Shown here: positions 18,704 through 56,138 of the stretch, piece after piece
Position numbering within the stretch: the stretch's first letter is position 1
How the letters are laid out: every line of letters starts with the position of its first letter
Assembly: GCA_965237525.1 (NCBI GenBank)
Contig: CBDEFO010000003.1
Coordinates: 55,468-119,467 of the forward strand
Direction of reading: 5' to 3'
DNA: 64,000 bases
Source of the DNA: Candidatus Latescibacterota bacterium
GTDB lineage: Bacteria > Latescibacterota > CBDEFO01
The notes under the pieces: generated by a model
Database searches by the model: none
Told to the model about the DNA's origin: nothing
Seen by the model: the letters and a program-made list of their open reading frames with translations, nothing else
Position numbers and translations under genes: made by a program

Positions 18704-18743
18704 CCCCGATTGAAGCCCCAATAGATTCAATTGGGGGTCGGGG
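18704..18743. repeat. CCCCGATT-type palindromic element (compound copy)
   Basis: CCCCGATTGAAGCCCCAATAGATTCAATTGGGGGTCGGGG has an outer pairing CCCCGA/TCGGGG and an inner pairing CCCCAAT/ATTGGGG. It is intergenic, at the edge of the high-GC block. Confidence 0.6.
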
Positions 18744-18980
18744 AAACCCAGAGCCTTCAGCCGAGAGCGAAGCAAAGTGCTGCGCAGGGTCCGCCAAGTG
18801 ATCTCGTAGACAGTGCGGTTTCCCATGGTAAGCTGACTACCCTCTATGATCTTGTCAAAACTATTTTGAACCGATACTTAATCCACGGGATCCCGTGTGT
18901 AGATCAGAATACGGAGAGAAAATGTGCAGGAAGACCTGAATATGAATAGAAATAGAGGAAGGATAATCTGGGCAGAGCTC

Positions 18981-19568
18981 CTACCAGTAAATATAGCGGG
19001 TCAGTTTCCGTAAATCCTCTCGAGGAAGTTTTTCAAGATCGGGAATTACGTAGCGATTATCGAGGACATCCAGAAGAATCTTGCCTTTATCGCCGTGATC
19101 TTGAGTCTTATTGTGCTGCCAGAGCATCTCAAACTGTCTTCTGCCACTTTCGTGGCTTGTTTGCTCCCCATCAAAGCGGCCGCGCCGCCCCTGCTGTGTC
19201 TCCGCATCGAAAAAGAGGAGTCCATATTTCCATTCTACGTTGTAAATCTTTGTTATTTCATACTCAAAGTAGTGACGCGATAAGGACTCAAGGAGGAGTT
19301 CCTCAGCCTCCCTTGAAAAGGGTTTAGGGTCTATTATAACCCCTATCTCATTTTCTTTATTGTTCTCGTCGTGATAACGCAGAGAAATATAACGATCAGG
19401 AGAGGACACGGGAAAGGCCAAGACAGCAAAGACCCCTCTGTAGAGTTCTCCCTGACCATCCTCATCCTTGACGTGGGTGTGAAGAAGACTGAAGATGCCC
19501 TTGAAAATTTCGCAGTTTTCGGGGGTTAGTATGTACACCCCCGTCCTCGGTCGGTGGCTTTCTATCAT
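18981..19568 (-). CDS. DUF1854-like protein associated with the upstream ABC exporter
   Basis: 195-aa ORF 27 nt downstream of the ABC gene. It ends in RYIYW and matches my recollection of the small DUF1854 proteins that accompany ABC exporters. This assignment is from memory only. Confidence 0.45.
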   Translation of the reverse strand: MIESHRPRTGVYILTPENCEIFKGIFSLLHTHVKDEDGQGELYRGVFAVLAFPVSSPDRYISLRYHDENNKENEIGVIIDPKPFSREAEELLLESLSRHYFEYEITKIYNVEWKYGLLFFDAETQQGRRGRFDGEQTSHESGRRQFEMLWQHNKTQDHGDKGKILLDVLDNRYVIPDLEKLPREDLRKLTRYIYW

Positions 19569-19594
19569 CTCCCTTTTTCTCCGATTCTTTGGTC

Positions 19595-21826
19595 TTAATC
19601 AGATTCAATAGCCGCAAGCTCAGTCTGGATTCGAACCAATCTACTGTAGATGCCCTCCTTTGCCATAAGTTCATCGTGATTGCCGTGTTCGGCTAATGTC
19701 CCGTCGTCTATGACGTAGATACGATCGGCACCTCTTAAAGTGGAGAGTCTGTGAGCAATAGCTATGGTCGTACGACCTTTGGAAAGGACCGCTAAAGCCT
19801 CCTGTATCTGTCGCTCCGACTCTGTATCCACGCTGGAGGTGGCTTCGTCCAGAATAAGGATGGCGGGATCGCAGAGAAGGGCGCGAGCGATTGAAACGCG
19901 CTGACGCTCTCCCCCTGAAAGCCCCGATCCTCTTTCCCCCAACATAGTGTCGTATCCGGATGGGAGACGCATAATAAAGTCGTGGGCGTTGGCGGCTTTG
20001 GCAGCGTTTATTATCTCCTCCGGAGTTGCGCCCGGCTTGCTGTAGGCGATGTTTTCCGCCACGCTTGCCCGGATCAGAAAAGGCTCCTGGAGCACAAGCC
20101 CAACGTGGCTTCTGAGGTCATGACTTGATACGTCTCTTACATCCTTGCCGTCTATGCGCACGGAGCCCTCCTGCACATCGTAAAATCTGCACAAAAGGTT
20201 TATGAGCGTAGTCTTGCCGCTTCCGCTCTTGCCCACTATTCCTATCATCGCTCCTGACTCTATGGAGATGGAGACACCTTTTATAACGGGACTGTAGGGA
20301 TCGTATCCGAAGACGACGTCGTCAAATTCTATGTCGCCTTTGACCTCCGGCATAGGTTCGGCATCTGGATCGTCTTTGATTCCTGGTTCTGTATCTAATA
20401 TCTCAAAGATGCGCTGGCTTGAAGTCATAAAGGACGTCAGCCAGTTGGAAAAGAACGTAAGTCTGGATAGGGGACTGTAGAACATCCCTATGTAACCTAA
20501 AAACGCCATCAGGGTCCCCAGCGTTATCTTATCCCCGAGGACGTCTTTTCCGCCGACGTACCATACGATGAGTCCACCGAGACTGAATACAAAAGCCATC
20601 ATAGGGTAGAACGTCCCACTGCTCATTTCCACTTTACGGCTGCTATCCCTCAGATAGCCGATTCTATTTAGAAAGCGACTCTTTTCCCTGTCTTCCTGGG
20701 CAAACGCCTTGACCAGACGGATCCCGGAGAGGACGCCGTACAGCATCGAGGAAAACTTAGACCGGCTGTCCCTGATCTTGAATTGTTTGGGATAGATGTA
20801 TCGCCAGAAGACTACCGTCCCAAGTATGACGAACGGGATGGGGATCAATATGTAGAAAGCAAGGCTCGCATTGAGATGAAAGAGCATCCCTCCTATGGCA
20901 AAGATAAGGATTATATTGACGAGGAACCCCTGAGTTGCTTGATCTATAAATCCCCGCAGTTCCTCTACATCCTGACTTACGCGGCTCATTAAGTCTCCCG
21001 CCTGCATCTTGTCGTAGTAGTCCACGGACATCCTCTGGAGCTTGTCAAAAAGCTGTCTCCTGACATCGTATGCAATCTGCGTCCCCACCTTGCTCGAAAG
21101 GCGGTTTATGAGGATATTTACAGAGTTTCTGAAAACATGCGCCCCGGCCAGCGCCGCCACTATGAGCAGTAGCCACTCCGTGTGAGTCTGCTCTGTCAGA
21201 ACGTCATCTACCAGTATCTTCGTCAAATATGGAGGGAGCATATCCATACCGACTCCTGCAAACACCAACAGGAAAAGGACAATTGCCCACATCAGGTGTC
21301 CCCGCATCATCTTTATGATCCTGAACAGAACCGCTCCCTGCTTTATGCATTTCGGACAGGGAGCGTTAGGATCGGGAAGCGTTAAGCCACATTCGGGACA
21401 GACATTTGGATCGGGTGCAAGCAGAGCCTCCTTTTGAATATCCCTGTTATCTTTGAGACGTTTAAGCTGTGAAAGGACCCTACCGAATCGCTCCCGATAG
21501 CCGTTGGAGAAGCGAACCAGATCCAGGTGAAGGCCGTCCACTGAAGTCTGAAGGCAGGTACTCCCCACAGTGCTTCGAAGTTTAAAGTTCTCTGTCTCTT
21601 TGAACTTGAAGGGTCCGACTATGGGAACTTCTGGGGATTCTGCTATAGCGGCCACGTGTTCCGAGGTAGCCACAAGCCAGACGCAGGTCATCTGGCCGTG
21701 CTGGCTGAGGTCTCCCTCTGCGGCGATAAGGATGTCGTCCTCTTTAATCTGGGCTTGGTCGAGGCGCTTCCGGATGGCCTTGGGGATTCCATCTTGAGAA
21801 GAGAGGACTATAAGATCGTTGTTCAT
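19595..21826 (-). CDS. ABC exporter (fused TMD-NBD, MsbA-type) with about 170-aa N-terminal extension containing a zinc ribbon
   Basis: Walker A GKSGSGKTT, signature LSGGERQR, Walker B ILILDEATS, with six TM segments before the NBD. The N-terminal extension carries CPECG...CPKC. Confidence 0.9.
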   Translation of the reverse strand: MNNDLIVLSSQDGIPKAIRKRLDQAQIKEDDILIAAEGDLSQHGQMTCVWLVATSEHVAAIAESPEVPIVGPFKFKETENFKLRSTVGSTCLQTSVDGLHLDLVRFSNGYRERFGRVLSQLKRLKDNRDIQKEALLAPDPNVCPECGLTLPDPNAPCPKCIKQGAVLFRIIKMMRGHLMWAIVLFLLVFAGVGMDMLPPYLTKILVDDVLTEQTHTEWLLLIVAALAGAHVFRNSVNILINRLSSKVGTQIAYDVRRQLFDKLQRMSVDYYDKMQAGDLMSRVSQDVEELRGFIDQATQGFLVNIILIFAIGGMLFHLNASLAFYILIPIPFVILGTVVFWRYIYPKQFKIRDSRSKFSSMLYGVLSGIRLVKAFAQEDREKSRFLNRIGYLRDSSRKVEMSSGTFYPMMAFVFSLGGLIVWYVGGKDVLGDKITLGTLMAFLGYIGMFYSPLSRLTFFSNWLTSFMTSSQRIFEILDTEPGIKDDPDAEPMPEVKGDIEFDDVVFGYDPYSPVIKGVSISIESGAMIGIVGKSGSGKTTLINLLCRFYDVQEGSVRIDGKDVRDVSSHDLRSHVGLVLQEPFLIRASVAENIAYSKPGATPEEIINAAKAANAHDFIMRLPSGYDTMLGERGSGLSGGERQRVSIARALLCDPAILILDEATSSVDTESERQIQEALAVLSKGRTTIAIAHRLSTLRGADRIYVIDDGTLAEHGNHDELMAKEGIYSRLVRIQTELAAIESD

Positions 21827-22091
21827 TTTTTTATTCTTGTCCCTATTAAAAAACAGTTTCGCACATAACCCGTCGGGGAACTCCCAATGTAGGATAGTTC
21901 CCTACTTTGTGCCGAAACTGTCAAATTAACGCAAACAAAACAATATGTTGGTGAATTTCTAGCCGACAATTAATATGAAAATTAAGCAAAAGTCGTCTCT
22001 TCGTCAAGCTGAAAGTGCAGATAGACTTAAAATTGGTAATACAGAACACAGACAGTTCAAACTTTAGATCTCAATACCAGCAGTCGCATTA

Positions 22092-22418
22092 TTACTGAAA
22101 ATGAACGATCTTTGAGAATGACTCGGGGTCAAGTGAGGCTCCTCCTAACAGCCCGCCGTCTATATTATCCTTCTCCATCAAGTCCGATATATTATCAGGT
22201 TTGACAGAGCCGCCGTATATTATTCTCACGGAGTCGGATGTACAGCTATCGTACATGTCCAAGCAATACCTTATGCAGGAGTGCACCTCCTCGGCCTGTT
22301 GGGGCATCGCTCCCCTGTTATAATCCATCAGGGATTCAAAGAGAATTTTCAGTAGGTGGAAAGCTTCGGCCGTTAGGTCGGAGCTTTTACATTTGGTGTT
22401 ACCTATATGCTCCACCAC
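22092..22418 (-). pseudogene. chimeric ORF: duplicated 3' end of tpiA fused to unrelated sequence
   Basis: 22085-22297 is about 85-90% identical by eye to the tpiA 3' end (25472-25690), reading PQQAEEVHS...[42 protein letters not shown]. 22297-22425 matches 24996-25115, the tail of the small-peptide gene plus the convergent intergenic region. Confidence 0.7.
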
Positions 22419-22838
22419 ATAAAATGCTAACTGACAGCCGACTGGGAGACGAAATTGTTACTTGCTGCCTTGGAAAAGCTTCCGCTTTCGACAAGATCAC
22501 AGAAGATCTTCAGACTCTCTGGAAGCATCTTTAGGTGCGAATTCCAATATGAAATGTACAGTGCCGTCATATTTTCATAATGAAATATTTCTATTGCATT
22601 GCGCATCTACAAGCGCGGTATAACTCGATATTCAGGCGATCACTATAAGTAAACTAAAAGGCTGTAACTCTATGTTATTACACTATTTACTCTGACGAGA
22701 TATGAGGACTTTAATATGACCTTTTACGATTAGAGGTTGCTGTTCAACTGTTGGCACAAATGTTGCACTAATACTATTATGAACGGCACGAAACACAGAC
22801 AATTCAAACTTTAAATCATATAAGGGAGGTGAAAGACC

Positions 22839-22934
22839 GTGAAATTACTAATGCTGATAGAAGGTATAAGTCTGATTGTGGCAGTAGCAGCGTTTGAGAT
22901 GTATGCCTACAACAGCCTCGCTGCCCTGTTCTAA
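22839..22934 (+). CDS. 31-aa hydrophobic peptide, array copy 1 (MKLLMLIEGISLIVAVAAFEMYAYNSLAALF)
   Basis: GTG start 7 nt after GGGAGGTG, TAA stop. The ORF is identical in copies 1-3. It is below the track's size cutoff. Confidence 0.55.
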   Translation: MKLLMLIEGISLIVAVAAFEMYAYNSLAALF

Positions 22935-23024
22935 CCCATCAGGGTTGTAGATTGCTGAAATATTATTGAGCGGCACGAAACACAGACAATTCAACTTTAA
23001 ATCATATAAGAGAGGTGAAAGACC

Positions 23025-23120
23025 GTGAAATTACTAATGCTGATAGAAGGTATAAGTCTGATTGTGGCAGTAGCAGCGTTTGAGATGTATGCCTACAACA
23101 GCCTCGCTGCCCTGTTCTAA
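23025..23120 (+). CDS. 31-aa hydrophobic peptide, array copy 2
   Basis: 96 nt identical to copy 1. The SD is AGAGGTG, 7 nt before the GTG. Confidence 0.55.
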   Translation: MKLLMLIEGISLIVAVAAFEMYAYNSLAALF

Positions 23121-23210
23121 CCCATCAGGGTTGTAGATTGCTGAAATATTATTGAGCGGCACGAAACACAGACAATTCAACTTTAAATCATATAAGGGAG
23201 GTGAAAGACC

Positions 23211-23306
23211 GTGAAATTACTAATGCTGATAGAAGGTATAAGTCTGATTGTGGCAGTAGCAGCGTTTGAGATGTATGCCTACAACAGCCTCGCTGCCCTG
23301 TTCTAA
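23211..23306 (+). CDS. 31-aa hydrophobic peptide, array copy 3
   Basis: 96 nt identical to copy 1. The SD is GGGAGGTG, 7 nt before the GTG. Confidence 0.55.
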   Translation: MKLLMLIEGISLIVAVAAFEMYAYNSLAALF

Positions 23307-23417
23307 CCGATCAGGGTTGTAGATTGCCCAATATTATTGAGCGGCACGAAACACAGACAATTCAACTTTAAATCGTATAAGAGAGGTGAAAGACTGTGAC
23401 AACTGTGACATTACTAA

Positions 23418-24936
23418 AAGCCTTGTGAAATAGTTATGTCCCAGGCAGCGTCTGAAGCGCCGATTATGGGTCAAAGAGTAGCATATCGTATCGTTTTGCT
23501 GTGGAATAAGCAAAATAGTCTTATCAGAGTTCTGGTCAGCAAGGAACAGGAGCTGTTTGAAGAACAGGATGCACTGTCTTTGACAGACAGGGCACACATA
23601 GACGCTTTCCCCCTTCTTATGAAAGATACAAGCCTCTTGAGATTCTGTACTGTTGCAACAAGATTCAACTGTTCATTCAGTGAGGCTGGTCCTCTATAAC
23701 GGGCTCGTCCCATACCGTGTTGTTGCCTGGCTTCAGCAAAGATATGTTCACTGCGTTTACGGAGTCTCCGGGAGAGTTTGTAGTCAGCTGTTAATGAGAT
23801 AGACCGTGCATGATTTCTGGCTTTCGCCTCTCGCACTTTTCTATCCCGTTCGGCCTGAATATGTGCTGAATTTGTCTTGTTTTTCCATGTAGGAATCGGT
23901 TCAATCTTCTCATCGGCTCGCAGAGGAATATGGGGTATGATTCCCCGGTCAAGTACATCAGCGATAAAATTACCAGAACCGTAACCGGTATCGGCACTAA
24001 GTGTCTGAATGTCTTTGGGCATGGTGTATGTTTCAAGGTCATCTACCATCTTAAGGGCACTTTCGGGCTCTGCTGTCCCTGTCGCCTGCGTGCCCTGAGT
24101 CTCAAGGATTACTCTGCTTTTTGTGTCGATCAGATCATGGCCCATAAACGAGAGAAAAGCCCCTTTGCCCTTCGATTTGCTGTATAAGCGCGCGTCGGGG
24201 TCTGTAGTCGAACGGTGTGTTTGGTTCGTCCACTTTTCACCATGAAAGTCTTTATCCTGAGGATGCCCGGACCTACCCTTTGTCTTATCACCTTCAAAAC
24301 CGATTCCCTTGAGATAATCATCAAGAGAAACAGGGGGTTCTATCGGCTCAATACTTTTCACTGAAGCATCAGCTTGTATCTGAGTGCCGTCGACACTAAG
24401 GTGTTTACCGCTCACAAGACCGACATCTATGCAACACTGGACTACCTGACGCATTATCCGTTCAAACAACCCACTGGATGCCCACTTGTGATTGCGAAGC
24501 TTGTTGATCGTGCTCCTATCCGGAACCGCATCATCAAATGTCTGATGACAAAACAACCGATATGCCGCATGCATCCCCACTTCCTGACAGAGCCGATTCT
24601 CACTCAAATTATACAGATAGCCAATAAGGATCATTCGAACAACTAATTCAGGATCAATACCGGGTCTGCCATTGTCAGGGCAATAACAATCTGATACAAC
24701 GTCTCGTACAAATGAAAAATCAACTGCCTCATCAATCTGACGAAGGATATGATCCTCGGGAACTAAATCCTCCATCTGAAAATAGTGAAACATCGGATTT
24801 GTCTGTTCCTGCTTTTGTGGGGTCATTGTTTCCTCCATGTATAATATTATCAATAACATAATATAATACATCGGAGCTGCTTTATCAATGCTTGTTCTAT
24901 ACTACTTTCTGAATCTAAGGGTTTTTCACAAGGCTT
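23418..24936 (-). mobile_element. IS element copy 2 (1519 bp)
   Basis: Same inverted repeats as copy 1, with CTAA direct repeats at 23414-23417 and 24937-24940. Confidence 0.9.
23471..24871 (-). CDS. IS1182/IS5-superfamily DDE transposase (466 aa, intact)
   Basis: The N-terminus (NPMFHYFQMEDLVPEDHILRQID) matches the DUF772-type transposase N-domain. The C-half carries LSADTGYGS and SEHIFAEARQQHGMGRARYRG, a DDE/YREK-like region. Confidence 0.9.
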   Translation of the reverse strand: MYYIMLLIILYMEETMTPQKQEQTNPMFHYFQMEDLVPEDHILRQIDEAVDFSFVRDVVSDCYCPDNGRPGIDPELVVRMILIGYLYNLSENRLCQEVGMHAAYRLFCHQTFDDAVPDRSTINKLRNHKWASSGLFERIMRQVVQCCIDVGLVSGKHLSVDGTQIQADASVKSIEPIEPPVSLDDYLKGIGFEGDKTKGRSGHPQDKDFHGEKWTNQTHRSTTDPDARLYSKSKGKGAFLSFMGHDLIDTKSRVILETQGTQATGTAEPESALKMVDDLETYTMPKDIQTLSADTGYGSGNFIADVLDRGIIPHIPLRADEKIEPIPTWKNKTNSAHIQAERDRKVREAKARNHARSISLTADYKLSRRLRKRSEHIFAEARQQHGMGRARYRGPASLNEQLNLVATVQNLKRLVSFIRRGKASMCALSVKDSASCSSNSSCSLLTRTLIRLFCLFHSKTIRYATL

Positions 24937-25099
24937 CTAATGCTGATAGAAGGTATAAGTCTGATTGTGTGTACATCGTGTATGGTGTATGTCAACAGCA
25001 ACATCGTTGCCCTGTTTTAATCCCTCAGGGATTCAAAGAGGATTTTCAGTAGGTGGAAAGCTTCGGCCTTTAGGTCGGAGTTTTTACATTTGGTGTTAC

Positions 25100-25464
25100 C
25101 TATATACTCCACCACAGAAAATATGGATAATCAACAATTAGATTGTAAATGAAGCCTACCACTATTCCCAGTATCACAAAAGCCGCTACTCCCGATATGA
25201 ATCCTGCGGGCTTTCCGAATCTGTTGGTGACCTTAGATACAATTTTTATCTGTCCAAGAATACTACCACTCCCGGAAGAAAGAGAAAAACCCGTTCAGAG
25301 GCTGTACACCACGGACAATTCGGTGTCTGAGGATGGTTGATATTACAGCAAGACACTGCCCCTGACCAGAGCCAGGTGCATCCGCACCTGAAGATAAACA
25401 CGCACAACGGAGTAATAAAGACTAAAGTGAAGACACCCCAGAATAACTTTTCTATAACTGTCAT
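25100..25464 (-). pseudogene. Cys-rich small membrane protein, apparent frameshift
   Basis: Track ORF 25246-25464 (FRCGCTWLWSGAVSCCNINHPQTPNCPWC) stops at 25246. A 1-nt shifted frame then continues IVSKVTNRFGKPAGFISGVAAFVILGIVVGFIYNLIVDYPYFLWWSI* to 25100. Family not recognised. Confidence 0.4.
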
Positions 25465-25478
25465 CCGCGCAGGTCGCC

Positions 25479-26255
25479 TTATTGCTGAAAATGAACGATC
25501 TTTGAGAAAGATTCGGGGTCGAGTGAGGCTCCGCCTATCAGCCCGCCGTCTATATTATCCTCCTCCATCAAGTCCGATATATTATCAGGCTTGACGCTCC
25601 CTCCGTAGATTATTCTCACTGCGTCGGCTGTCTCGCTGTCGTACATGTCCAAAAGCAAGTACCTTATGTAGGAGTGCACCTCCTCGGCCTGTTGGGGCGT
25701 CGCTGTCTTGCCCGTTCCGATAGCCCAGACCGGCTCGTAGGCTATCGCAAGCTTTTTGACCTCATCAGAGGAGATCCCTGCCAACCCGTTCGATATGTGA
25801 TCCCTCACCACATCGAACGTTTTTCCTTCTTCTCTCTCCTCCAACTTTTCGCCGATGCACATAACAGGGGTCAGGTTATGTCTCAATATAGCCATAACCT
25901 TCTTATTGACCTCATCATTGCTTTCTTTGAAATATTGTCTCCTCTCGCTGTGACCCGCTATCACATAGCTACATCCAATATCTTCAAGCATAGACGGTGA
26001 CACTTCTCCTGTGAAGGCTCCTTCGTCCTCCCAGAACAGGTCCTGGGCTCCTAAACCGATGTTTGATCCCTTTATTACCTTGCCTACCGCATCCAAAGCC
26101 GTAAAGGGGGGGGCAATGAAAACCTCTGCATTGTCACTTACATCCTTCACTAAGTCCACGATCTTTTTTGATGTCTCTACTGCCTCTCCCACAACCTTAT
26201 TCATCTTCCAGTTCCCGCCTATTACGGGGATCCTTGACATGCCTTTTCTCCTCAA
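25479..26255 (-). CDS. tpiA: triosephosphate isomerase
   Basis: [54 protein letters not shown]. The likely start is MSRIPV at 26240. Confidence 0.9.
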   Translation of the reverse strand: MRRKGMSRIPVIGGNWKMNKVVGEAVETSKKIVDLVKDVSDNAEVFIAPPFTALDAVGKVIKGSNIGLGAQDLFWEDEGAFTGEVSPSMLEDIGCSYVIAGHSERRQYFKESNDEVNKKVMAILRHNLTPVMCIGEKLEEREEGKTFDVVRDHISNGLAGISSDEVKKLAIAYEPVWAIGTGKTATPQQAEEVHSYIRYLLLDMYDSETADAVRIIYGGSVKPDNISDLMEEDNIDGGLIGGASLDPESFSKIVHFQQ

Positions 26256-26264
26256 ATTTTCCCT

Positions 26265-26390
26265 TTATCTGGAGTTAGATCGCTGAGTCTGCATCCTCAC
26301 AGCGCCGCATCTTCGACATATCCACTTTCTACGCTTGTGGAAGCTGCGCTTTTGCTCCGTCATCTTATATCCGCATCTTTTGCAGTACAA
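26265..26390 (-). CDS. candidate 41-aa basic zinc-ribbon peptide
   Basis: Hand-found ORF with a TTG start 7 nt after GAGGTG. It reads MYCKRCGYKMTEQKRSFHKRRKWICRRCGAVRMQTQRSNSR* (CxxC...CxxC) and lies between the PP-loop gene and tpiA. It is short, so uncertain. Confidence 0.3.
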   Translation of the reverse strand: MYCKRCGYKMTEQKRSFHKRRKWICRRCGAVRMQTQRSNSR

Positions 26391-27737: not shown

Positions 27738-28664
27738 TCAGGAGGGAGGGGAGGTGCCCTGTCTACTGTCTACTGTTTGCTGTCCACTGCTCTTCCACCT
27801 TCTGTGCATCCACAGCCAGTGATCTGGATATTTCCTTATGTACTCCTCCAGAACAGATGTATATTTCTGCGTTAGTTCCCTTATGCCGTGCTTTGACCCT
27901 GCGAACTCAGACGGATATATCGGGCCTTCGACTATTACCCTGTGTCTCCCCCCTTTCTGTCTTATCGGAAAACAGAGCACAAGAGGGATATTTCTCTTCA
28001 GAGCTATTGCCGCCGGTCCGGGAGGGGCCGATGCGCACTTATCAAAAAAGTTCACGAACACACCATCGGGACCGGCGTCCTGATCGGACAGAAAGCCCAC
28101 GAACTCTCCACGCCTTAAGGCCTTAAAGACCTCCTTGACCGAACTACTCCCCCTCGGAATCACCTTTAACCCGACCGCCTCTCTATGGTGTACAACGATA
28201 CGCTCAACCAATTCGTTCTTCATGGGAGCTGTCAGTGCAGAAAGGCGATAACCTAAATTACAGATCGCCGCTCCCGTCATCTCCCAATTCCCGAAGTGCC
28301 CTAGCACTAAGATGACCCCTCTTTTTAAGCTGGCAGCTTCCTTTGCTTTTTCAAAATTGATGAACCTGACAGACCTATTGATCTCATCCTTACCCATATA
28401 CGGGAGCCTCAGGAATTCGATCAGAGTCCGGCCGAAGTTCCTGTACGTGCCCCTTGCTATATCTTTCAGTTCCCTGTCGCTCTTCTCAGTTTCGAACGCC
28501 CTTTTTAGGTTCTGAAATACGATCTTCTTTCTGATTCCTATCACATAGAACGAGAGGTCTCCCAAGATCGCTCCGAAGAACAGGGCCGCTTTGAGTGGGA
28601 GGACATTCGCCAAGACTTTTAGAACTTCGACACCTGTATATTCGGCCAAATATTTTACAGACAT
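27738..28664 (-). CDS. LpxL/HtrB-type lysophospholipid (lipid A) acyltransferase
   Basis: About 300 aa with an N-terminal TM segment. Carries the HFGNWE catalytic motif, then FLSDQD and a PDHWLWMHRRWK C-terminus. Confidence 0.8.
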   Translation of the reverse strand: MSVKYLAEYTGVEVLKVLANVLPLKAALFFGAILGDLSFYVIGIRKKIVFQNLKRAFETEKSDRELKDIARGTYRNFGRTLIEFLRLPYMGKDEINRSVRFINFEKAKEAASLKRGVILVLGHFGNWEMTGAAICNLGYRLSALTAPMKNELVERIVVHHREAVGLKVIPRGSSSVKEVFKALRRGEFVGFLSDQDAGPDGVFVNFFDKCASAPPGPAAIALKRNIPLVLCFPIRQKGGRHRVIVEGPIYPSEFAGSKHGIRELTQKYTSVLEEYIRKYPDHWLWMHRRWKSSGQQTVDSRQGTSPPS

Positions 28665-28713: not shown

Positions 28714-29682
28714 TTAGTATCCCGCTTCTCTATTATCCTCGATCTCCCACCCTTTCATAATCCTTTTTGCTCTCATTTTTTTCAGCGCATATACCAGTAT
28801 AAAGAGCAGACTTATGCCTACCCACAGCGTGAACGAATCTGTAGCCAAGGACACGAAGCCGAATCTGTCTTCCACATATCTTCTCCATCCTCGTTCAAAC
28901 TCATCGAGCGATATGCGTAACACACTTACTATCGCGAGCTCGAACGTAGCTCCAGCGGTCATCTCTGCCACAAGTCGCCTGAAGACATCTTCATCTGAAA
29001 GCTTTACAAGATATAAGGCGGCAAGGAAGCTTTGCATATAAGCCTGTTGTGCTTTGGAGGATGAAAATGTCAGAACCGAATCTATCTTGTCCAGTGGAAT
29101 AATGCCCCCGGTCAGGGCAGCGAAAGCCATACTAACACTCTGACCTAACCTCCATTCCCCTGAAAGGTACATAGCCAGGCCCTCGTTGAACCAACGTGGG
29201 ACTCTCACCGAGTGGTCGGACCATTTTTCTTTGAGGGTCCGTTCCAGCACTACGTGCGTTAGCTCGTGAGTCAAAATTTCTCTCATATTTCCTGCACCTA
29301 TAGCCTTGGGCTTTAAGATGATAAGGCTATCTTGGGGGAATGCGCAACCTGCTCCCCACTCGGGTATGGCTCCGCCTGTTACCTTCTCGAATTCCTCGTC
29401 GGACGAGGGGAGATATATCTTAGTATATCCGTATGAGTCTGTCCCTATCCTTTCAGATACGTCTATCAGACTCAACTTTGCTTCATCGAGCACCCTTTTT
29501 GCAAGAGTAGGGTCCGCTCCGTGGTAGAATACACCTATCAGTTCGGACTCCTCCCCTTTCCACACGGAATCGCCCCCGATTAAATCGGGGATCGACTTTG
29601 AAGATTGGTCGGTCACCGACTCCGTGGAGGAGCCCGGGACAGTAAGGAGAAGTGTCGCTAAAAGTGCCTTTGCGATCCTCAA
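28714..29682 (-). CDS. secreted zinc metallopeptidase (peptidase MA-like, HExxH) with C-terminal TM anchor
   Basis: Signal peptide, THELTHVV (HExxH), and a downstream NEGLA that may supply the third ligand. Hydrophobic C-terminal segment WVGISLLFILVYAL. Contains an in-frame copy of the CCCCGATT palindrome, coding IPDLIGG. Confidence 0.6.
   Translation of the reverse strand: MRIAKALLATLLLTVPGSSTESVTDQSSKSIPDLIGGDSVWKGEESELIGVFYHGADPTLAKRVLDEAKLSLIDVSERIGTDSYGYTKIYLPSSDEEFEKVTGGAIPEWGAGCAFPQDSLIILKPKAIGAGNMREILTHELTHVVLERTLKEKWSDHSVRVPRWFNEGLAMYLSGEWRLGQSVSMAFAALTGGIIPLDKIDSVLTFSSSKAQQAYMQSFLAALYLVKLSDEDVFRRLVAEMTAGATFELAIVSVLRISLDEFERGWRRYVEDRFGFVSLATDSFTLWVGISLLFILVYALKKMRAKRIMKGWEIEDNREAGY
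29574..29590. repeat. CCCCGATTAAATCGGGG palindrome inside a coding region
   Basis: Perfect 8-bp arms around one central base. It lies in frame within the peptidase gene. Confidence 0.6.
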
Positions 29683-32561: not shown

Positions 32562-32651
32562 AAGCTTTAAAGCCGCACCTTGTGAATATGCCGATTAAGT
32601 CTGATCCACCCACTTCAGCTAGCCCAATTTTCCCTATATACCTTTCTTTAA

Positions 32652-34170: not shown

Positions 34171-34174
34171 TTAA

Positions 34175-49459: not shown

Positions 49460-49546
49460 ATTCTTTTCGATCTTAGCCCCTCCTTTGTGCCCTTTGCGGT
49501 TCAAGTAATAGCCCGGTCAAGACGAAATTGGGAAGGAGAGAACGCA

Positions 49547-50173: not shown

Positions 50174-50186
50174 AGAGGAAGATGCG

Positions 50187-50747: not shown

Positions 50748-51310
50748 CGGAGTATGAACATAGCGCGTATTCTGGTCGTCTGCATGAACAGAACAGCAAG
50801 ATTCACATTTTAGATTACGGGCATGCGACCGCGATAGGGAATCCAGGCGGTGCGGAAAACAGATTAATCAGTGCAACTTTAGCTATGCATTACAATATGA
50901 AAAAATCATATTCGTAAAGCCAACGTCTATCGTAACAGAACAAAAATAAGGAAAGTCCGGAATCGTTCCAGCAGAAACGCAGCAGACAATAGTCAGTCAG
51001 TAGAGGTTGAATGCCAAATGAAATGAGAGCGCTAGACAGTTGTTCAGTTGTGATTCGGAAAGGTTGCTCTTCTCAAGAATTTGTCACACGTTGGACGACC
51101 TTCTTGCCCTTACAACCTGAAATTAAATGTAGGGGCGCGGTTGACTCGCCCCAAGAGCAGGGTTACCCTGCCCCTACGAATACGCATGTGGGGGGCAAAG
51201 CGTTCCTGGAAAAACTGAGACCAAAATGTTTTGCCTTTCCGAATCACAGCTAAGATCTATTTTATCAGGCAAGTTAAAGAGGACACACAACAAGCAGATA
51301 AAGCCGTGAT

Positions 51311-51331
51311 CCCCGATTGATTCTATCGGGG
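51311..51331. repeat. CCCCGAT-N7-ATCGGGG palindromic element
   Basis: CCCCGATTGATTCTATCGGGG, intergenic, at the low-GC side of the 50.8-kb composition boundary. Confidence 0.5.
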
Positions 51332-51583
51332 ATGTCTTAAATGACAAAGTGTTTCTTCCCTCCTTTTACATCAACTACTTTGTCCTGGCTGAATGGAACC
51401 TAAAAGAAGAACAATTATACATCCATTTTGAAAAGGAGCAAAAACCAAAGGTTATCAGAAAGCTATCATTCAAGATTAATCAAAGATCCAAAGAGAAGTG
51501 TTCTCATTTCATATGACCAATAACCAGTAGATACTGCACCTCCTTCTACTTTAGCCGTCCTTGCAGGGCGACGCAGGAGCAAG

Positions 51584-51607
51584 CCCCCCATAGATTCAAT
51601 CGAGGGC
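51584..51607. repeat. degenerate copy of the CCCC..ATAGATTCAAT..GGG element
   Basis: CCCCCCATAGATTCAATCGAGGG; compare CCCCAATAGATTCAATTGGGGG at 18715-18736. Confidence 0.45.
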
Positions 51608-51700
51608 AAGCCACGAAGTAGGGTAAGCAATCTGCGTTATACTGCCTCCACCTTTGTGCTGTCCAATGTGTGCTGACTGCTTGTCCTACGACTATAGCTT

Positions 51701-52747
51701 CTATGTTACAGGAAGTTCGACTTCCGCCTCCCTTAAGTACCTTGCGGCGTCTTCAGGCAGAGTGGGATTGATGTAAAATCCGGTTCCCCACTCAAAGCCT
51801 GCTACCTTTGTCAGCCTCGGGATGATCTCAATATGCCAGTGGAAATCGAACTCCAGAGTTCCCCAGTAGCCGGGTCTTCTGGGTCCTGCCTCCGTGTTCG
51901 GAGCCGTATGCAGCATAAAATTATACGGCGGATCTGAAAGACTTACCTTCAATTTGGCTAACACATCCTTCAGACTCTCACATAGTGCCCCTATTTGGTC
52001 CTCTTGTATATCCCCAAAATCGTGAGAATGCCGGGTTGGAGCTAAAAAGACCTCAAAGGGGAACCTGGACGCGTAAGGGGCTATCGCCACAAAGTCGCCG
52101 TTTTCGAAGATAAGCCTCTCTCCTGACGAGATCTCCTGATCTATCACATCGCAGAAGAGACATCTTTCCTTTAACATGTAGTGATTCTTTGCCGAATCGA
52201 GCTCTTGAGCAACAATCTTAGGAGTAACTGGAGTTGCTATCAGTTGAGTGTGAGGGTGAGAAAGCGACGCTCCGGCAACTTCCCCGTAGTTTTTGAATAT
52301 CAGGATATACCTGAACCTTGGATCCTTCTTGAGGTCGTTCAATCGGAGCTTGTAAGCTTTCACCACAAGTTCTAGATCCTCTACAGGCATATCTGCCATA
52401 TTCACAGTGTGGTCAGGCGTCTCGATCACCACCTCATGTGCACCAACGCCGTTCATAACATCGAATATACCGACGCCCCTTCGGTCCAGATCTCCTTCGA
52501 TTCTCAAAGCTGCAAACTTATTGGGAACTACCCTCACCTTCCACCCCGGAGAGTTAGGTTCTGTCCCTTTATCCCTGAAGGCGAATATCTCGGGAGGCGT
52601 CTTATCCTCATTTCCACCGCAGAATGGACAGAAATCCGGTATCGGTTCCTCGGCGGTTATATTGAAGTCTGAGGGTCTCCTTGCCCTTTCTGTAGATATT
52701 ATAACCCATCTTCTCTGTATGGGGTCGTGCCTCAATTCTGGCATATT
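51701..52747 (-). CDS. galT: galactose-1-phosphate uridylyltransferase-like (class I GalT / HIT-superfamily nucleotidyltransferase)
   Basis: RHDP...RWV..S..R..RP, CPFCGGNE, and the HPHTQL histidine-triad motif. The likely start is MPELRHDP at 52747; the track ORF extends to 52795. Confidence 0.75.
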   Translation of the reverse strand, partial: NMPELRHDPIQRRWVIISTERARRPSDFNITAEEPIPDFCPFCGGNEDKTPPEIFAFRDKGTEPNSPGWKVRVVPNKFAALRIEGDLDRRGVGIFDVMNGVGAHEVVIETPDHTVNMADMPVEDLELVVKAYKLRLNDLKKDPRFRYILIFKNYGEVAGASLSHPHTQLIATPVTPKIVAQELDSAKNHYMLKERCLFCDVIDQEISSGERLIFENGDFVAIAPYASRFPFEVFLAPTRHSHDFGDIQEDQIGALCESLKDVLAKLKVSLSDPPYNFMLHTAPNTEAGPRRPGYWGTLEFDFHWHIEIIPRLTKVAGFEWGTGFYINPTLPEDAARYLREAEVELPVT

Positions 52748-52759
52748 AACACCTCTGAT

Positions 52760-52783
52760 CCCCGACCCCTGATTTAATCGAGG
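52760..52783. repeat. degenerate CCCCGA..GATTTAATCGAGG element
   Basis: CCCCGACCCCTGATTTAATCGAGG spans the stop of the GH57 gene and the short spacer before galT. Confidence 0.4.
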
Positions 52784-54936
52784 ACCAAAACACAAAACTC
52801 AAAGTTGCATTCCCATCTATCTTTAGGACCTATCCCTATCTTCCAATTGGGAAACACAACGGAGCTTTGATATGTCCTTTCAAAGCCTTTTTCCGATTGC
52901 GAAACTGTCTCCACAGGAAAACGCCATACGTCTGTCTTTCTATCGAATTTTAACGACACAGTCAAATTCCGATCATCGTCGTCTAAATCTATCCTATCTA
53001 TTCCTTCAACAGCTCCTGTGCTCCCTAAACTGCAATCCTTTAAGTCCACTTGTAAATTTCGACTACGGATCTCGTAGTGCCTTGCTGGTCCCTCTCCTGA
53101 TAGAAATGAAAAATTAAACTCCACGCCGAACCAGAGTTCTACGTCCGCATCCAGAGGGTTTTCAATAACGTAGCGCACATCCACTTGGGCGTTAGATTTA
53201 GACATCTTAAGCTTCTTGGACACCGTCAAAGGTTGTTTCTTTTGTCCGTATATCCCCCCATCTCTTCGCATTGATACCTCTTTGCCACCATTTTGATCCT
53301 TAATATCGTACAAATAAGGCTGATTCACAAAATCTCCCAACTCCCGGTACTCGCACGCCTTGAATCCTTCAAGTGAGGTCCCTTCTCCCAGGAAATGATC
53401 CAGAAAGCACACTCTGTTGTACCAGTCATATTTGAGATAACGCTCGATTCCCTCCTCCGTCACCTTAGCCAGGTCGTGAATACTGCCAGGCCCTTCATAC
53501 TGTTTGCCCTCCACTTCTACCTCATACCTGCCCTCTATGATATCCCTGTGATAGCTTTCAGGCCTCCTTGACAGAGTGTTCACCAGATTGAAATCTCTCG
53601 GCTTGTAGTCCAATTCAAAGAGTGACCCGCCGTAGGAAGGATCAAGATACAGATTCAGCAGGCCGTTGCTCAAGATAATCTCATCTTTTCCGTCCCCGTC
53701 AAAATCCAACTCCTCGGACTCAATCCAATCTCCTGAACCTTTTTCCTCTTCATCGGAGATCCTTTCGGCCCTTATAAGGTGTCTGTAAACGGTGTCCCTT
53801 AGATGAGGCAGATAGAGACCTCCGAACACGCCGTGCCAGTAAGCACAGTTACACTGTCCTTTCCATAGCTCGCTTATAGCTTCTCCCTCCCCTTTTAAAT
53901 CGACTTTCCTGCTCACAGAGAGCATCTTTTTGTGCATATTGTTGCTCTCATCATACTTGGCCAGGAACCCCCTCCAGAATCCGCCCTTTAAGAACACCTT
54001 ATACTTTTCTATCTCTCCTTTGTCCTTCAAATCCTCCACAATATCCTCAAGCTCCGCTCCCTTTTGAGATGGGAGAGTCCATTGGCTCATCTCAAAATAA
54101 GAGGCTGTCGGGAGGTATGCCCTGCCTGAAGCCGGGTGCTTATCGGTGAAGTCCGAAAAGGTAGTGGTATTAATCCAATCGCTGTTCTCCTCCAGAGCAC
54201 AGAAGAACTTCTCCAGCCACTTCTCCTTATAGACCCAATCGTAAGTCTTGGGCCATAGGCCGAACTTCTCTCCGTCGTCAACGATCACCGATAACCTGTC
54301 TCGATTCAGAGAGGTCGGATCGTTCTCAGTGCCCATGTCTCGTAGATAATCGATTGTAAATTCTGGTAACTTGAACGGAATTCCGTATCTCAGCCTTTCG
54401 CTTATCGGAAAGATAGAGAGCACATACCCCTGTTCTTCAGTATTGAAATATCCGTAGAGTTCCTCTTCGTTGAATCCGGCGCTTTTGAAGTGATAATCGT
54501 CGAGGGCTACATACTTTATCCCCGCCTCAGCCAGCGGCTTGGGTAGGTGAGGCTCCCATACCCTTTCAGGCAGCCACATCCCCCTTGCCTCGTACCCGAA
54601 TCTATCCTTGATGTAATCTGTCAACATCTCTATTTGACCTATCTTATCCCTGTCGGGGATAATAGGCATAATAGGCTCGTAGAATCCCCCGGTCATCATC
54701 TCGACCTGTCCTCTATCTACTAACTCTTTCAGCATAGCGATAAACTCAGGTCTCTTTTGCTCTATCCATTCCAGAAGACAGCCGGAATAGTGCAGAACCA
54801 TCTTTATAGAGGGGTGCCTTGAAAGGATCTGGATAAAGGGCAGATACGACTTTTTGTAGGCCATTTGAAAGACAGAGTCAAAATTCCCCACTGGTTGATG
54901 GCAGTGTATCCCGAATATAAGATTTATCCTCTTCAT
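52774..54936 (-). CDS. GH57-family alpha-glucan enzyme (4-alpha-glucanotransferase/amylase type with C-terminal beta-domains)
   Basis: GIHCHQPVGNF, GGFYEPI, WLPERVWEP and ALDDYHF are the GH57 conserved regions. The start MKRINLIF at 54936 overlaps the upstream stop (ATGA). Confidence 0.85.
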   Translation of the reverse strand: MKRINLIFGIHCHQPVGNFDSVFQMAYKKSYLPFIQILSRHPSIKMVLHYSGCLLEWIEQKRPEFIAMLKELVDRGQVEMMTGGFYEPIMPIIPDRDKIGQIEMLTDYIKDRFGYEARGMWLPERVWEPHLPKPLAEAGIKYVALDDYHFKSAGFNEEELYGYFNTEEQGYVLSIFPISERLRYGIPFKLPEFTIDYLRDMGTENDPTSLNRDRLSVIVDDGEKFGLWPKTYDWVYKEKWLEKFFCALEENSDWINTTTFSDFTDKHPASGRAYLPTASYFEMSQWTLPSQKGAELEDIVEDLKDKGEIEKYKVFLKGGFWRGFLAKYDESNNMHKKMLSVSRKVDLKGEGEAISELWKGQCNCAYWHGVFGGLYLPHLRDTVYRHLIRAERISDEEEKGSGDWIESEELDFDGDGKDEIILSNGLLNLYLDPSYGGSLFELDYKPRDFNLVNTLSRRPESYHRDIIEGRYEVEVEGKQYEGPGSIHDLAKVTEEGIERYLKYDWYNRVCFLDHFLGEGTSLEGFKACEYRELGDFVNQPYLYDIKDQNGGKEVSMRRDGGIYGQKKQPLTVSKKLKMSKSNAQVDVRYVIENPLDADVELWFGVEFNFSFLSGEGPARHYEIRSRNLQVDLKDCSLGSTGAVEGIDRIDLDDDDRNLTVSLKFDRKTDVWRFPVETVSQSEKGFERTYQSSVVFPNWKIGIGPKDRWECNFEFCVLVLD

Positions 54937-55640
54937 ACGTACCACATCCTCTCCAGAAAATCCTTCCCGGGGACCTCTACTGTCATGGCTCCGTGCAGAG
55001 GCCACACCTCCATCTGTGAACCACCCTTCACAACGTATATCCTTACCCCAACGCTCTCTCCCTTCGACGCTCCCAGGGTGTCAAACGGCACTTTTACCTC
55101 GAACACCTTATCTACTCCTACTTCGATATCTGGGAAGTTCTTATTGTTGTTCTCAAGGGACATATCGAGTCCCAATCTATCTTTTCCCACAACCTCTATC
55201 GCGACAGAGATGCCTTCATCTCTCATCTGGTCGGGACTTATTGTCGTATCCGCTCTCAGATAGAGATTCTCTAGATCGAAGCCGTAATGCACGTTCTTTA
55301 AGATCGTTCCTCCTCGATGCGTCGAACCCCTTTCGCCACCCATGCTGTGGCATCCTGCGCTCAACCACTCATAGTACCCTGTCACCTTTCCATCTATAAC
55401 GGGGCATATGAAATCCACAGGCTCCTTGAAAGGCAGTCGCTTCTCCACCTTTGTAAGAGGAACATCCAGATATCCCGGCGGTTCTTTGCCTATCAACTGG
55501 TAGAAATTCTTCAGATGACCTCTGAAGAGACTGTCGAACTGCTCATCGTGTGATGACGAATGATCTGCCCCGTACCACCAGAACCAGTCGCTTCCCTGGG
55601 CCATATAGATCTCATCTTGCGCTCTTCTTACTGCAGGAGA

Positions 55641-55665
55641 TCCCACCCGATTTAATCGGGAGGGA
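55641..55665. repeat. TCCCACCCGATTTAATCGGGAGGGA palindromic element inside coding sequence
   Basis: It lies in frame in the GH57 gene, coding ...DPSRLNRVGS... Confidence 0.5.
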
Positions 55666-56098
55666 TCCTCTTTTAGACTGTCCAGTTCATCACCAGCCAT
55701 CTTTAGATACTCCCAGCCCCTATTCTCCTCTTCGTCGCCTATCCAGGTCCCGAAATTGGCGTCTATCCACGAACCCGGAAAGATCCTCTTCAAACGCGTC
55801 CCTTCAGGGTGCATCTTTAGAAAAGAATTAAAAGTTATAGTCTTTAATCCTTTGGTGTTACTCAACTTCTTGTACAGCGCCCTTAGAAACTCGGCTCCAT
55901 TTTCCCTGTAATTCTCCCAGGCGTTCTCACCATCCAATATTATCGAAACTATGTGCGCTCCACTGTCTGCCTCAATGCCGTCTCTTATATTCAAAAGGCG
56001 CCCCACGAAGTCCTCCGCCGCTTTTTTGGCATCCCATGTTTGATACACAAACCCTATAAGGTCGGACAATCTGTGGTCTCTGAAGAAGAGCTTTATGT

Positions 56099-56138
56099 CC
56101 CCGATTGAACCCCCCCCCGATTAAATCGGGGGGGGGGG
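56099..56138. repeat. CCCCGATTGAA + C9-GATTAAATC-G11 palindromic element inside coding sequence
   Basis: On the plus strand, CCCCGATTGAA-CCCCCCCCC-GATTAAATC-GGGGGGGGGGG. This is the site of the GH57 frame change. Confidence 0.7.

Follow-up and report, generated by a model that had tools for sequence, protein, structure and literature searches.

The window, a stretch of 64,000 nucleotides from a contig of a Candidatus Latescibacterota bacterium, carries eight loci of a family of short hairpins, all built on the stem CCCCGAT/ATCGGGG, with unit lengths of 17–44 nt. Three forms are present in the window: a 23-nt hairpin with the loop TGAWYCT, a 17-nt hairpin and a 44-nt nested hairpin. The family core is an 8-bp stem, YCCCCGAT/ATCGGGGR, which is closed by the conserved 7-nt loop TGAWYCT in type A units (21–23 nt) and by a 3-nt loop in type B units (17–19 nt); units nest one in another to give compound forms of 43–55 nt, a sister-lineage form included. 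The bases flanking the hairpin at position ±1 form a complementary pair in 96% of cases. When hairpins that repeat only through their location inside four IS copies are left out of the ranking, this family is the commonest short hairpin of the window, and extrapolation from ~85 kb gives a density of roughly one copy per 8–10 kb. A first-pass annotation had listed seven copies, all of which are present at, or no more than 5 nt from, the positions it gave; its total misses an eighth, the type A hairpin TCCCCGATTGAACCTATCGGGGA at 2961–2983 (+), with an 8-bp stem and a 7-nt loop. The window copies occupy variable loops and linkers of two enzymes, one of family GH57 and the other an MA-family peptidase, supply one stop codon, and are intergenic at three loci.

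The first intergenic copy (18701–18744, +; family D20) is a compound element, in which an outer type A hairpin (TGTCCCCGATTGAA...TCGGGGA) holds in its loop a reversed type-A-like hairpin, CCCCAATAGATTCAATTGGGG (18716–18736), carrying a compensatory G-C to A-T change in the stem. It is predicted to fold in two tiers (−12.8 kcal/mol, z −4.0) and is bordered by convergent succinyl-CoA-ligase-like and DUF1854 genes. The second, the type A hairpin TCCCCGATTGATTCTATCGGGGA at 51310–51332 (+), sits within a high-depth repeat, in one copy only, the others being free of the hairpin; comparison with the paralogous empty site ...TTTATC^GATGTC... points to a 19-nt insertion in TC^GA. The third, a degenerate type A hairpin on the minus strand at 51584–51606 (CCCCCCATAGATTCAATCGAGGG on the plus strand), forms an inverted pair with the second, 274 nt apart. 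The suggested clustering of intergenic copies at high-GC block edges is weak, holding at 18.7 kb and failing at 51.3–51.6 kb, where the GC content is 0.46–0.51. A truncated compound at 52759–52784 (−), whose minus strand reads CCTCGATTAAATCAGGGGTCGGGGA, does lie at a gene junction, as had been noted, and it also overlaps coding sequence: the gene upstream, a GH57-family 4-alpha-glucanotransferase (52774–55005, −), takes its last codons and its TAA stop from the element, which also forms part of the 30-nt spacer ahead of a GalT-like gene. The 2961–2983 copy reads SPIGSIGED in the unmatched N-terminal part of the mechanical ORF 2612–3088(−); the Pfam match of this ORF begins only at residue 72, and the copy may instead lie upstream of the true start.

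Three copies lie inside genes for conserved enzymes. The type B hairpin CCCCCGATTAAATCGGGG(A) at 29573–29591 (+) is located in the Peptidase_MA_2 gene 28714–29682(−), where it encodes IPDLIGG in a linker segment just after the signal peptide; the alignment shows that orthologues lack this segment. The other two are hosted by the GH57 glycoside hydrolase gene (54933–57126, −). At 55641–55665 (+), a type B core (ACCCGATTTAATCGGGA) with an extended stem, GATCCC/GGGATC, encodes PSRLNRVGS in a segment that varies in length among GH57 orthologues; in the sister lineage it reads PPRFNRRGS, with four substitutions in 17 nt, including a flipped central base (55653). Both peptides had been read correctly in the first-pass annotation, and the alignment check it had proposed finds PDLIGG and SRLNR non-conserved in orthologues. 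The mapping onto structure that it likewise proposed places the coded segments of an AlphaFold2 model in one low-confidence loop (element-coded residues 330–343, pLDDT below 50) and one inter-helix turn.

A third reading, PPPDLIGGG for the copy at 56099–56138, does not apply to the window, since the reading frame is broken there by a frameshift. This copy (56096–56139, +) is a 44-nt compound (outer TGTCCCCGATTGAA..., inner CCCCCCCCCGATTAAATCGGGG...) with C9 and G11 runs, and the frameshift falls exactly on it, splitting the GH57 gene into two overlapping ORFs (55972–57126 and 54933–56069); on a 461,973-nt contig with the window's own proteins, GH57 is annotated as products of 384 and 357 aa. 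Sister assemblies (X2, X4 and L122) carry a 43-nt in-frame form that encodes SPTPDLIGGGSIGD and has one C fewer and TC in place of GG, and the sister lineage has a 55-nt form, also in frame. The three linked changes in the window (+C, TC to GG) lengthen the inner perfect stem and give a 12-bp hairpin fold. In the window's strain, a frame-breaking variant of this copy appears to have divided GH57 in two.

We compared the number of hairpins with that expected by chance. The pattern CCCCGATN{1,9}ATCGGGG has four exact matches in the window against 0.01 expected, a number attained in none of 100 shuffles, and CCCCGATTNAATCGGGG with up to three mismatches has four matches against 0.29 expected. The family is real, and a chance origin is largely refuted.

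The hairpins also turn over quickly between close relatives. Against the sister genome (~95–96% identity), six sites show a hairpin gain, loss, expansion or flip and two show no change: the 2961–2983 copy is identical in the sister lineage (X7), and the DNA at 29573–29591 is identical in the sister genome L123. Between two assemblies that are 99.8% identical, 6 of the 42 strain differences fall within the 141 nt that the hairpins occupy, against 0.31 expected; two of the 42 are located in the 51310–51332 copy, and position 52781 shows an A/G difference. The inner hairpin at 18721–18739 is confined to the window lineage; L123 has a 19-nt gap there and only a degenerate 25-nt version of the compound. 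Conversely, two type A copies belong to the sister lineage only. One is at ~27778, in the C-terminal tail of the acyltransferase gene 27738–28664(−), where the window has the element-free TCTACTGTCTACTGTTTG (27757–27785, −) and the sister genome the in-frame hairpin CCCCCGATTGAATCTATCGGGGG (APDRFNRG); the other is at ~4412, where X7 has ~27 extra nt, including a 23-nt type A copy, at a site that is element-free in the window (4405–4417). Expansions or contractions of 12 nt occur at 52775 and 56130; at 52759–52784, X7 has 12 additional nt (AATCGGGGGTTC) that complete the compound and give a TGA stop from GATTGAA. Most pairs of filled and empty sites look less like a clean insertion than like an exchange of 8–17 nt, often those of another small hairpin, and both ~27778 and ~4412 are cases of replacement. 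One site can moreover carry the hairpin in either orientation between identical flanks. Template switching or strand exchange would account for these patterns no less well than classical transposition would.

The family extends to unrelated lineages. A metagenome scan with the exact 21-mer CCCCGATTGANNCTATCGGGG found it at 120 loci or more, and it is absent from 852 kb of unrelated genome loci. The matches listed comprise 125 instances in 52 distinct flank contexts and two GC classes, and 24 of 91 distinct instances among them lie in long ORFs, with hosts that include GAPDH, RelA/SpoT, FtsK, a CobD-like aminotransferase, an M81 peptidase and an IS630 transposase. For GAPDH, solved structures have a gap of 6–7 residues exactly at the element. 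Rifle ‘Deltaproteobacteria GWx_42’ MAGs account for the low-GC hosts, and the best JGI homologues of the window lineage's proteins are only 34–44% identical. Pairs ~200 nt apart occur at three loci (L126, L166 and L179), and most copies are single or nested, not doublets. The 150 ORFs that neighbour the metagenome copies are ordinary, unrelated genes, as would be expected if the elements were mobilized in trans. The window, L122, L123 and these 150 ORFs yielded no Y1/RAYT gene (PF01797), and the sampled DNA holds no transposase candidate linked to the hairpins. The idea that an IS recognizes the element ends finds no match in the window, where the IS ends are TTAAAAGCCTTGTGAAA and unrelated to the hairpins.

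The first-pass annotation likened the family to the Rickettsia palindromic elements (RPEs), and the likeness holds for behavior. RPEs occur in frame in unrelated housekeeping genes at apparently permissive positions, and also between genes (PMC10969869); here, GH57, Peptidase_MA_2 and the tail of an acyltransferase hold in-frame copies, as do GAPDH, RelA, FtsK and others elsewhere, in conserved enzymes and in segments that orthologues lack or vary. Membership is rejected on length and tags. RPEs are about 100–150 bp long and encode a conserved peptide of ~30–50 residues, and the short RPE-4 and RPE-6 end in CGTC (PMC10969869, PMC3733652), whereas the units described here measure 17–23 nt, the compounds 43–55 nt and the peptides 6–18 residues, and the hosts are free-living environmental lineages. 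CGTC is absent at the window copies; across 76 instances, no more than two on each side have CGTC or GACG 9 nt or less from the hairpin end, none has GTAG and one has CTAC. MITEs (Correia, ERIC, Chunjie and others) are non-autonomous and can likewise fuse in frame with host ORFs (PMC10969869), but they are 50–500 bp long, bear terminal inverted repeats that match an IS, and have target-site duplications; we rejected this class for the hairpins, given the unrelated IS ends and the lack of any target-site duplication or flanking direct repeat beyond palindromic GC. Intrinsic terminators were rejected as well, since no window copy is followed by a T-run on either strand.

REPs and the 21–27-nt small dispersed repeats (SDRs) of cyanobacteria are closer analogues than RPEs. 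SDRs of heterocystous cyanobacteria are reported by Elhai and colleagues to be hairpin-forming units of this size that nest one in another and in longer repeats, differ precisely in presence or absence between relatives, and lie mainly outside genes; they are not known to have a transposase. The nested compounds, the copies within longer repeats and the presence/absence differences seen here resemble SDRs by that description; the host group is different, and the SDR sequence is not known to be related. With REPs and REPINs, the hairpins share the character of dispersed, imperfect palindromes of 20–40 nt with GC-rich stems of 6–9 bp, often between convergent genes, perhaps sometimes in inverted pairs, occasionally in frame within genes and sometimes donating stop codons; intragenic in-frame and stop-donating REPs are already documented (PMC3733652), and REPs are non-autonomous and thought to be mobilized in trans (PMC3116915). 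They differ from REPs in having no GTAG/CGTC terminal tag, a conserved 7-nt loop and nested units. REPIN–RAYT systems are described as mostly vertically inherited (bioRxiv 10.1101/2022.05.22.493013), whereas here identical copies occur in very distant lineages and no RAYT gene was seen in the sampled DNA. We propose, with a probability of roughly 0.6, that the hairpins are very small, non-autonomous mobile DNA elements that resemble REPs and SDRs and behave like RPEs without being RPEs.

Alternatively, the hairpins could spread and be exchanged through errors of replication or repair, with no dedicated transposase: template switching at stalled forks, or break repair copying an ectopic hairpin via microhomology in the GC-rich stem, followed by quasipalindrome correction in situ. 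The hairpin-for-hairpin replacements, including those at ~27778 and ~4412, the two orientations between identical flanks and the failure to find a transposase near the copies all speak for this possibility. So do the three linked changes in the GH57 copy and the central-base flip in the sister lineage. Template-switch mutagenesis at quasipalindromes, known from the work of Ripley and of Lovett, produces clustered multi-base changes that perfect a hairpin, as well as loop inversion, and accounts for the changes at 56096–56139 and 55653; it is a local process that alone creates no new dispersed copies. Local errors could hardly produce exact 21-mers with a conserved 7-nt loop, common to lineages of at most 44% protein identity, unless horizontal input or sequence-specific recognition played a part, and at least one clean 19-nt gain occurred at the center of TCGA. 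We regard such an origin as rather unlikely.

A role as host signals under selection, rather than selfish DNA, seems improbable to us. The hairpins would then act, as proposed for some REPs, as DNA- or RNA-binding sites for proteins, mRNA stabilizers or decay barriers, attenuators or terminators, or nucleoid or topoisomerase sites. The conserved loop and the complementary flanking pair suggest recognition of some kind; the copies at 18701, 51310 and 51584 lie between convergent genes and that at 52759 at an operon junction, and those at 2961 and 29573 are conserved in the sister lineage. Signals of this kind are difficult to reconcile with the lack of terminator T-runs and of any Rfam match, with copies within unrelated proteins in several frames and both orientations, with quick gain, loss and sequence turnover, and with the inactivation of a host gene by one copy in the window's strain. 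Finally, an artefact, whether of palindromes arising by chance or of GC homopolymers wrongly assembled, can practically be dismissed: the perfect 17-mer does occur singly in many unrelated genomes, often as an ordinary terminator-like hairpin, and De Bruijn contigs break at the 56096–56139 compound, whose C9/G11 frameshift variant could be a mis-assembly, but the family is enriched over shuffled sequence, the same window copies were recovered in independent assemblies (two ENA contigs and Logan contigs of several runs), and different projects yielded genes that hold copies in frame.

If the hairpins are REP/SDR-like mobile elements, transposition would proceed in trans, by an enzyme encoded elsewhere than nearby, most plausibly, in line with what has been proposed for REPs, a HUH/Y1-type transposase that acts on single-strand DNA and recognizes hairpins. 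New copies would arise at short palindromic sites, in the window lineage often TC^GA or pre-existing small hairpins, and a settled copy would change quickly through slippage, template switching within the hairpin and inversion of its loop. Within genes, only frame-keeping copies would survive, with four of the six frames open, and the survivors would be those in loops, linkers and termini, where they would be translated as short Pro/Gly-rich peptides such as PDLIGG, SRLNR, SPIGSIG, PDRFNRG and PRLNLSG.

The window holds eight loci of a family of mini-hairpins with the stem CCCCGAT/ATCGGGG. The seven copies listed in the first-pass annotation were all recovered, and a mismatch scan together with a repeat finder added an eighth locus at 2961–2983 and resolved three forms. 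Type A, with a 7-nt loop, is TCCCCGAT-TGAWYCT-ATCGGGGA (23 nt); the copies at 2961 and 51310 have this form, and the one at 51584 is a degenerate version in reverse orientation. Type B is the 17-nt form CCCCGATT-W-AATCGGGG, which makes up the 29574 copy and the core of the 55645 copy. In the compound form one unit is nested in another: the 18701 and 56096 copies (44 nt, 80% alike) are compounds, and the 52759 copy is a truncated, reversed one. Folded as single-stranded DNA, the compounds give a hairpin in two tiers, with an outer stem of 7–8 bp, a 5' bulge and an inner stem of 7–8 bp (folding energies −12.8 to −15.4 kcal/mol, z about −4). At 18716–18736 the inner unit is type A in reverse, its stem carrying a compensatory change from G-C to A-T. 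Allowing up to three mismatches, CCCCGATTNAATCGGGG has 4 matches in the window against 0.29 expected, and CCCCGAT...ATCGGGG with a loop of 1–9 nt has 4 exact matches against 0.01 expected. When every 6- and 7-mer hairpin in the window was tallied without bias, this stem came first, and the only comparable hairpins are repeated because they lie within four IS copies.

Three known sources of short hairpins were rejected on anatomy: intrinsic terminators (there is no T-run), CRISPR repeats (the spacing is irregular) and tRNA arms (the loop violates the rules for T-loops and anticodon loops).

Several copies touch genes on the minus strand, assigned by Pfam as a Peptidase_MA_2 protein (28714–29682), a GalT-like gene (51701–52795), a GH57-family 4-alpha-glucanotransferase (52774–55005) and a GH57 hydrolase (54933–57126). 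The readings IPDLIGG in the peptidase and PSRLNRVGS in GH57 are correct. The second GH57 copy, previously read as an in-frame PPPDLIGGG, does not hold up in the window, where GH57 consists of two overlapping ORFs and the frameshift coincides exactly with the element at 56096–56139; on a 461,973-nt contig bearing the window's own proteins, the gene is called as products of 384 and 357 aa. An in-frame GH57 is present in several independent assemblies, namely Logan contigs (runs X2 and X4) and L122, a near-identical 1.95-Mb ENA contig of this lineage, ERZ25067264 ctg836448. Relative to the window, these lack one C and have TC in place of GG, which gives a 43-nt element, the peptide KSPTPDLIGGGSIGDIKLFFRD and an intact protein of 730 aa. 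The three linked changes in the window's element, by which the inner perfect stem grows to 12 bp, are of the kind that template switching within a hairpin would be expected to leave. Assembled contigs also break at this repeat, and the frameshift may instead be a mis-assembly. The glucanotransferase takes its last codons and its TAA stop from the 52759 copy; in run X7, a view of the sister lineage, this copy is 12 nt longer and the stop is TGA.

The closest GH57 orthologues outside the species share only 44% identity with the window protein. In an alignment of 20 GH57 sequences the two element-coded segments fall in the two most length-variable stretches, and window-type proteins are longer than most there by about 10 and about 5–13 residues. 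An AlphaFold2 model of the intact protein (mean pLDDT 75.7) places residues 330–343 in coil with pLDDT below 50, directly before the strand 345–348, and residues 488–496 in a helix-helix turn. The peptidase's element occupies a linker following the signal peptide, and the orthologues have no such linker. Since these segments are variable or absent in orthologues and fall at such places in the model, neither PDLIGG nor SRLNR is conserved; their conservation was the outcome that the first-pass annotation had named as refuting its reading.

The window and L122 are 99.78% identical across 19,069 nt, and 6 of their 42 differences fall within the 141 nt of hairpin, against 0.31 expected. The sister genome is represented by the syntenic locus L123, from the 4.54-Mb ENA contig ERZ26167216 ctg495883 (94.7–96.1% identical), and by run X7 as a second view. 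All that the sister carries at 18701 is a degenerate type A of 25 nt, with a 19-nt alignment gap at 18721–18739, the position of the window's inner hairpin. Where the window has 17 unrelated nucleotides in an acyltransferase's C-terminal tail (about 27778), the sister carries an in-frame type A (APDRFNRG), and near 4412 X7 is longer by about 27 nucleotides, a type A copy among them. The lineages further differ by 12 nt in length at 52775 and 56130, and at 55645 by four substitutions in 17 nt, among them a flip of the central base (PSRLNRVGS in the window, PPRFNRRGS in the sister); the 2961 and 29573 copies are the same in both. About 17 kb aligned to L123 shows four indels of 6 nt or more, two of which involve the hairpin family. 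Two further indels relative to the sister lie in a PfkB-family kinase ORF (31572–32561, minus strand): an 18-nt GTGGTGCGACCACTCCGT at 31763–31780 with the small palindrome GTGGT-GCG-ACCAC, in the window only, and a 30-nt tandem duplication at about 32534, in the sister only.

In the intergenic stretch 51225–51530 the window carries a diverged copy of a sequence present at 12–80 times the depth of the genome contigs. The abundant version is without a hairpin (...AAAGCCTTTATC/GATGTC...), and the window version at 51310 reads ...AAAGCCGTGATC + CCCGATTGATTCTATCGGG + GATGTC.... By this comparison of sequences, the window's hairpin is a clean gain of 19 nt at the centre of TCGA. The same TC^GA flanks recur at 2961, at 55641 and at the outer ends of 18701 and 56096. 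Within the intergenic region 50750–51700, the high depth was seen for 51331–51525 in four runs (about 90% identity); this segment is part of an abundant contig roughly 1 kb long. It is either a high-copy repeat or a shared element, matches no Rfam family and holds no long ORF.

The family also occurs outside this lineage. A scan of JGI metagenome contigs with CCCCGATTGANNCTATCGGGG, which has 19 specified bases, returned at least 120 loci, with at least 125 instances in at least 52 distinct flank contexts; by our arithmetic, more than 10^13 bases would have to be scanned for chance alone to give 120 matches. Among the matches listed there are two GC classes (0.39–0.48 and 0.56–0.68), 27-nt tandem arrays and, in L187, L209, L226 and L241, nested compounds like those of the window. 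Position ±1 is complementary in 96% of the 76 non-redundant instances listed (C..G in 60, T..A in 14), which extends the stem to 8 bp; around the instances listed there is no target-site duplication except a palindromic GC. The low-GC hosts are Rifle groundwater MAGs labelled 'Deltaproteobacteria bacterium GWA2_43_19 / GWF2_42_12 / GWC2_42_11'. The best JGI homologues of the window lineage are only 34–44% identical, and identical 21-mers are thus common to very distant organisms.

Among the distinct instances listed, 24 of 91 sit in ORFs reaching at least 150 nt to either side. Metagenome hosts include RelA/SpoT (element peptide TPDRFNRG), GAPDH (FTDAN-PRLNLSG-AKAHIE), an FtsK linker (SPIGSIGD), a CobD-like aminotransferase (PPIDSIGG), an M81 peptidase with two tandem copies, a LolA-like protein and an IS630 transposase. 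Compared residue by residue, the two closest solved GAPDH structures have a gap of 6–7 residues at the element. Empty sites were sought in near-identical RelA and aminotransferase orthologues, and the element was present in both; a database search with the concatenated element-encoded peptides gave no match at E ≤ 10.

For the shorter 17-mer CCCCGATTNAATCGGGG in genome contigs, the matches listed are mostly single unrelated hairpins, terminator-like or belonging to other repeat families, and the window's own genome is not among them. As control DNA, 852 kb of these unrelated genome loci contain no type A copy. The 17-mer also forms the centre of other, longer palindromic repeats: MAGs of Nitrospirota, Nitrospinota and Methylomirabilis carry a ctggatt...aatgaca repeat, a Cloacimonadota MAG has a palindrome of roughly 60 nt, and Microgenomates and Gottesmanbacteria have stacked CCGATT units (genome loci L003, L007, L008, L021, L030, L111; L055, L121; L099, L109).

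Four IS copies of 1.53 kb lie in the window, at 6464–7993 (minus, transposase ORF split), 23415–24943 (minus), 32645–34174 (plus) and 37592–39121 (plus). They are more than 99% identical, encode a DDE_Tnp_1/DUF772 transposase of 451–466 aa and end in TTAAAAGCCTTGTGAAA. The first-pass annotation had asked whether an IS recognizes the hairpin ends; because these terminal repeats are unrelated to the hairpins, an origin of the palindromes from IS ends was rejected. The syntenic stretch of L123, which covers the 23415, 32645 and 37592 sites only, is without IS, and L122 has one more copy just past the window end. None of five transposase copies compared matches their consensus, and an exact look-up of copy b returned no record. 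Near one IS, three tandem 186-nt repeats (22807–23364) accompany duplicated fragments of a triosephosphate isomerase region (22083–22425 and 25002–25704), where the sister has one 186-nt unit and an intact single tpiA region. Other genes also look broken: a zinc alcohol dehydrogenase beside an IS is split into two overlapping ORFs (5386–6451, minus), an impB/mucB C-terminal fragment stands isolated at 4853–5242 (plus), and an EAL-domain fragment (39107–39670, minus) abuts an IS end. The window's strain looks IS-ridden and rich in pseudogenes.

As for what moves the hairpins, no Y1/RAYT gene was found in the window, L122 or L123, and no family is enriched among the 150 ORFs nearest the metagenome copies, which form an unbiased housekeeping mix. 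The hairpins carry no GTAG or CGTC tag and so belong to neither of the two REP superfamilies that Di Nocera et al. described (PMC3733652); intragenic REPs and REPs that donate stop codons are already on record in that paper. In the Rifle 'Deltaproteobacteria GWx_42' lineage, a longer multi-copy repeat, CCCAAAAATAGnCATTGATTTTTGGGGAAAC...GGAGGCCATTTTTGCGA..., hosts interchangeable small hairpins (L126, L134, L153, L164, L179, L193 and others); its units are about 240 nt apart in L179, and it has no Rfam match. Its paralogous copies occur in four states: (i) without the hairpin; (ii) with the hairpin substituting for a native small hairpin; (iii) with the hairpin at that same position in either orientation; and (iv) with the hairpin substituting for an upstream small palindrome. 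Taken with the replacements near 27778 and 4412, these states suggest that the hairpins may move by strand exchange or template switching directed by the hairpin itself, and not by simple cut-and-paste.

The first-pass annotation was essentially right in what it observed. Its likening of the family to Rickettsia palindromic elements is apt for behaviour, as the copies sit in frame at permissive sites, but membership of that group is not supported. We propose, with a probability of roughly 0.6, that they are REP/SDR-like minimal hairpins: non-autonomous elements that evolve fast, are tolerated in frame where a protein permits an insert, occasionally break a gene, and are common to distant uncultured bacteria. 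The main rival is that copies spread by template switching during replication or repair with no dedicated enzyme; the GH57 changes speak for it, the identical 21-mers in very distant organisms speak against it, and we regard it as rather unlikely. That the hairpins serve a host function appears improbable; they match no Rfam family, and the one known RNA that the search returned was an unrelated tRNA. An artefact is scarcely credible, with none of 100 shuffles yielding four stem matches.

Beyond the REP/SDR-like reading, we suggest tentatively, as a rather doubtful possibility, that YCCCCGAT-TGAWYCT-ATCGGGGR (19–23 nt) could be an undescribed class of horizontally spreading minimal mobile elements that move by hairpin-for-hairpin strand exchange. 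Such a hairpin would substitute for existing small hairpins or split short palindromes such as TCGA, catalysed by a hairpin-specific enzyme or by no enzyme, and would seed Pro/Gly-rich inserts of 6–9 residues in core enzymes of several bacterial phyla. Identical 21-mers at no more than 44% protein identity, without tag, duplication or linked transposase, make tag-less REP-like hairpin movement a testable question.

The copies are fast-evolving markers that separate very close strains, and a source of gene inactivation, as in the GH57 frameshift. They also break assemblies, contigs ending at the 31-mer, and split genes and odd peptides of the PDLIGG or SPIGSIG type become recognizable as element-derived. 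If the proposal is true, the family would be among the smallest known mobile or copy-spreading DNA units, and would show that units of this kind reshape conserved proteins such as GAPDH, RelA, FtsK and GH57 in uncultured bacteria as well as in Rickettsia.
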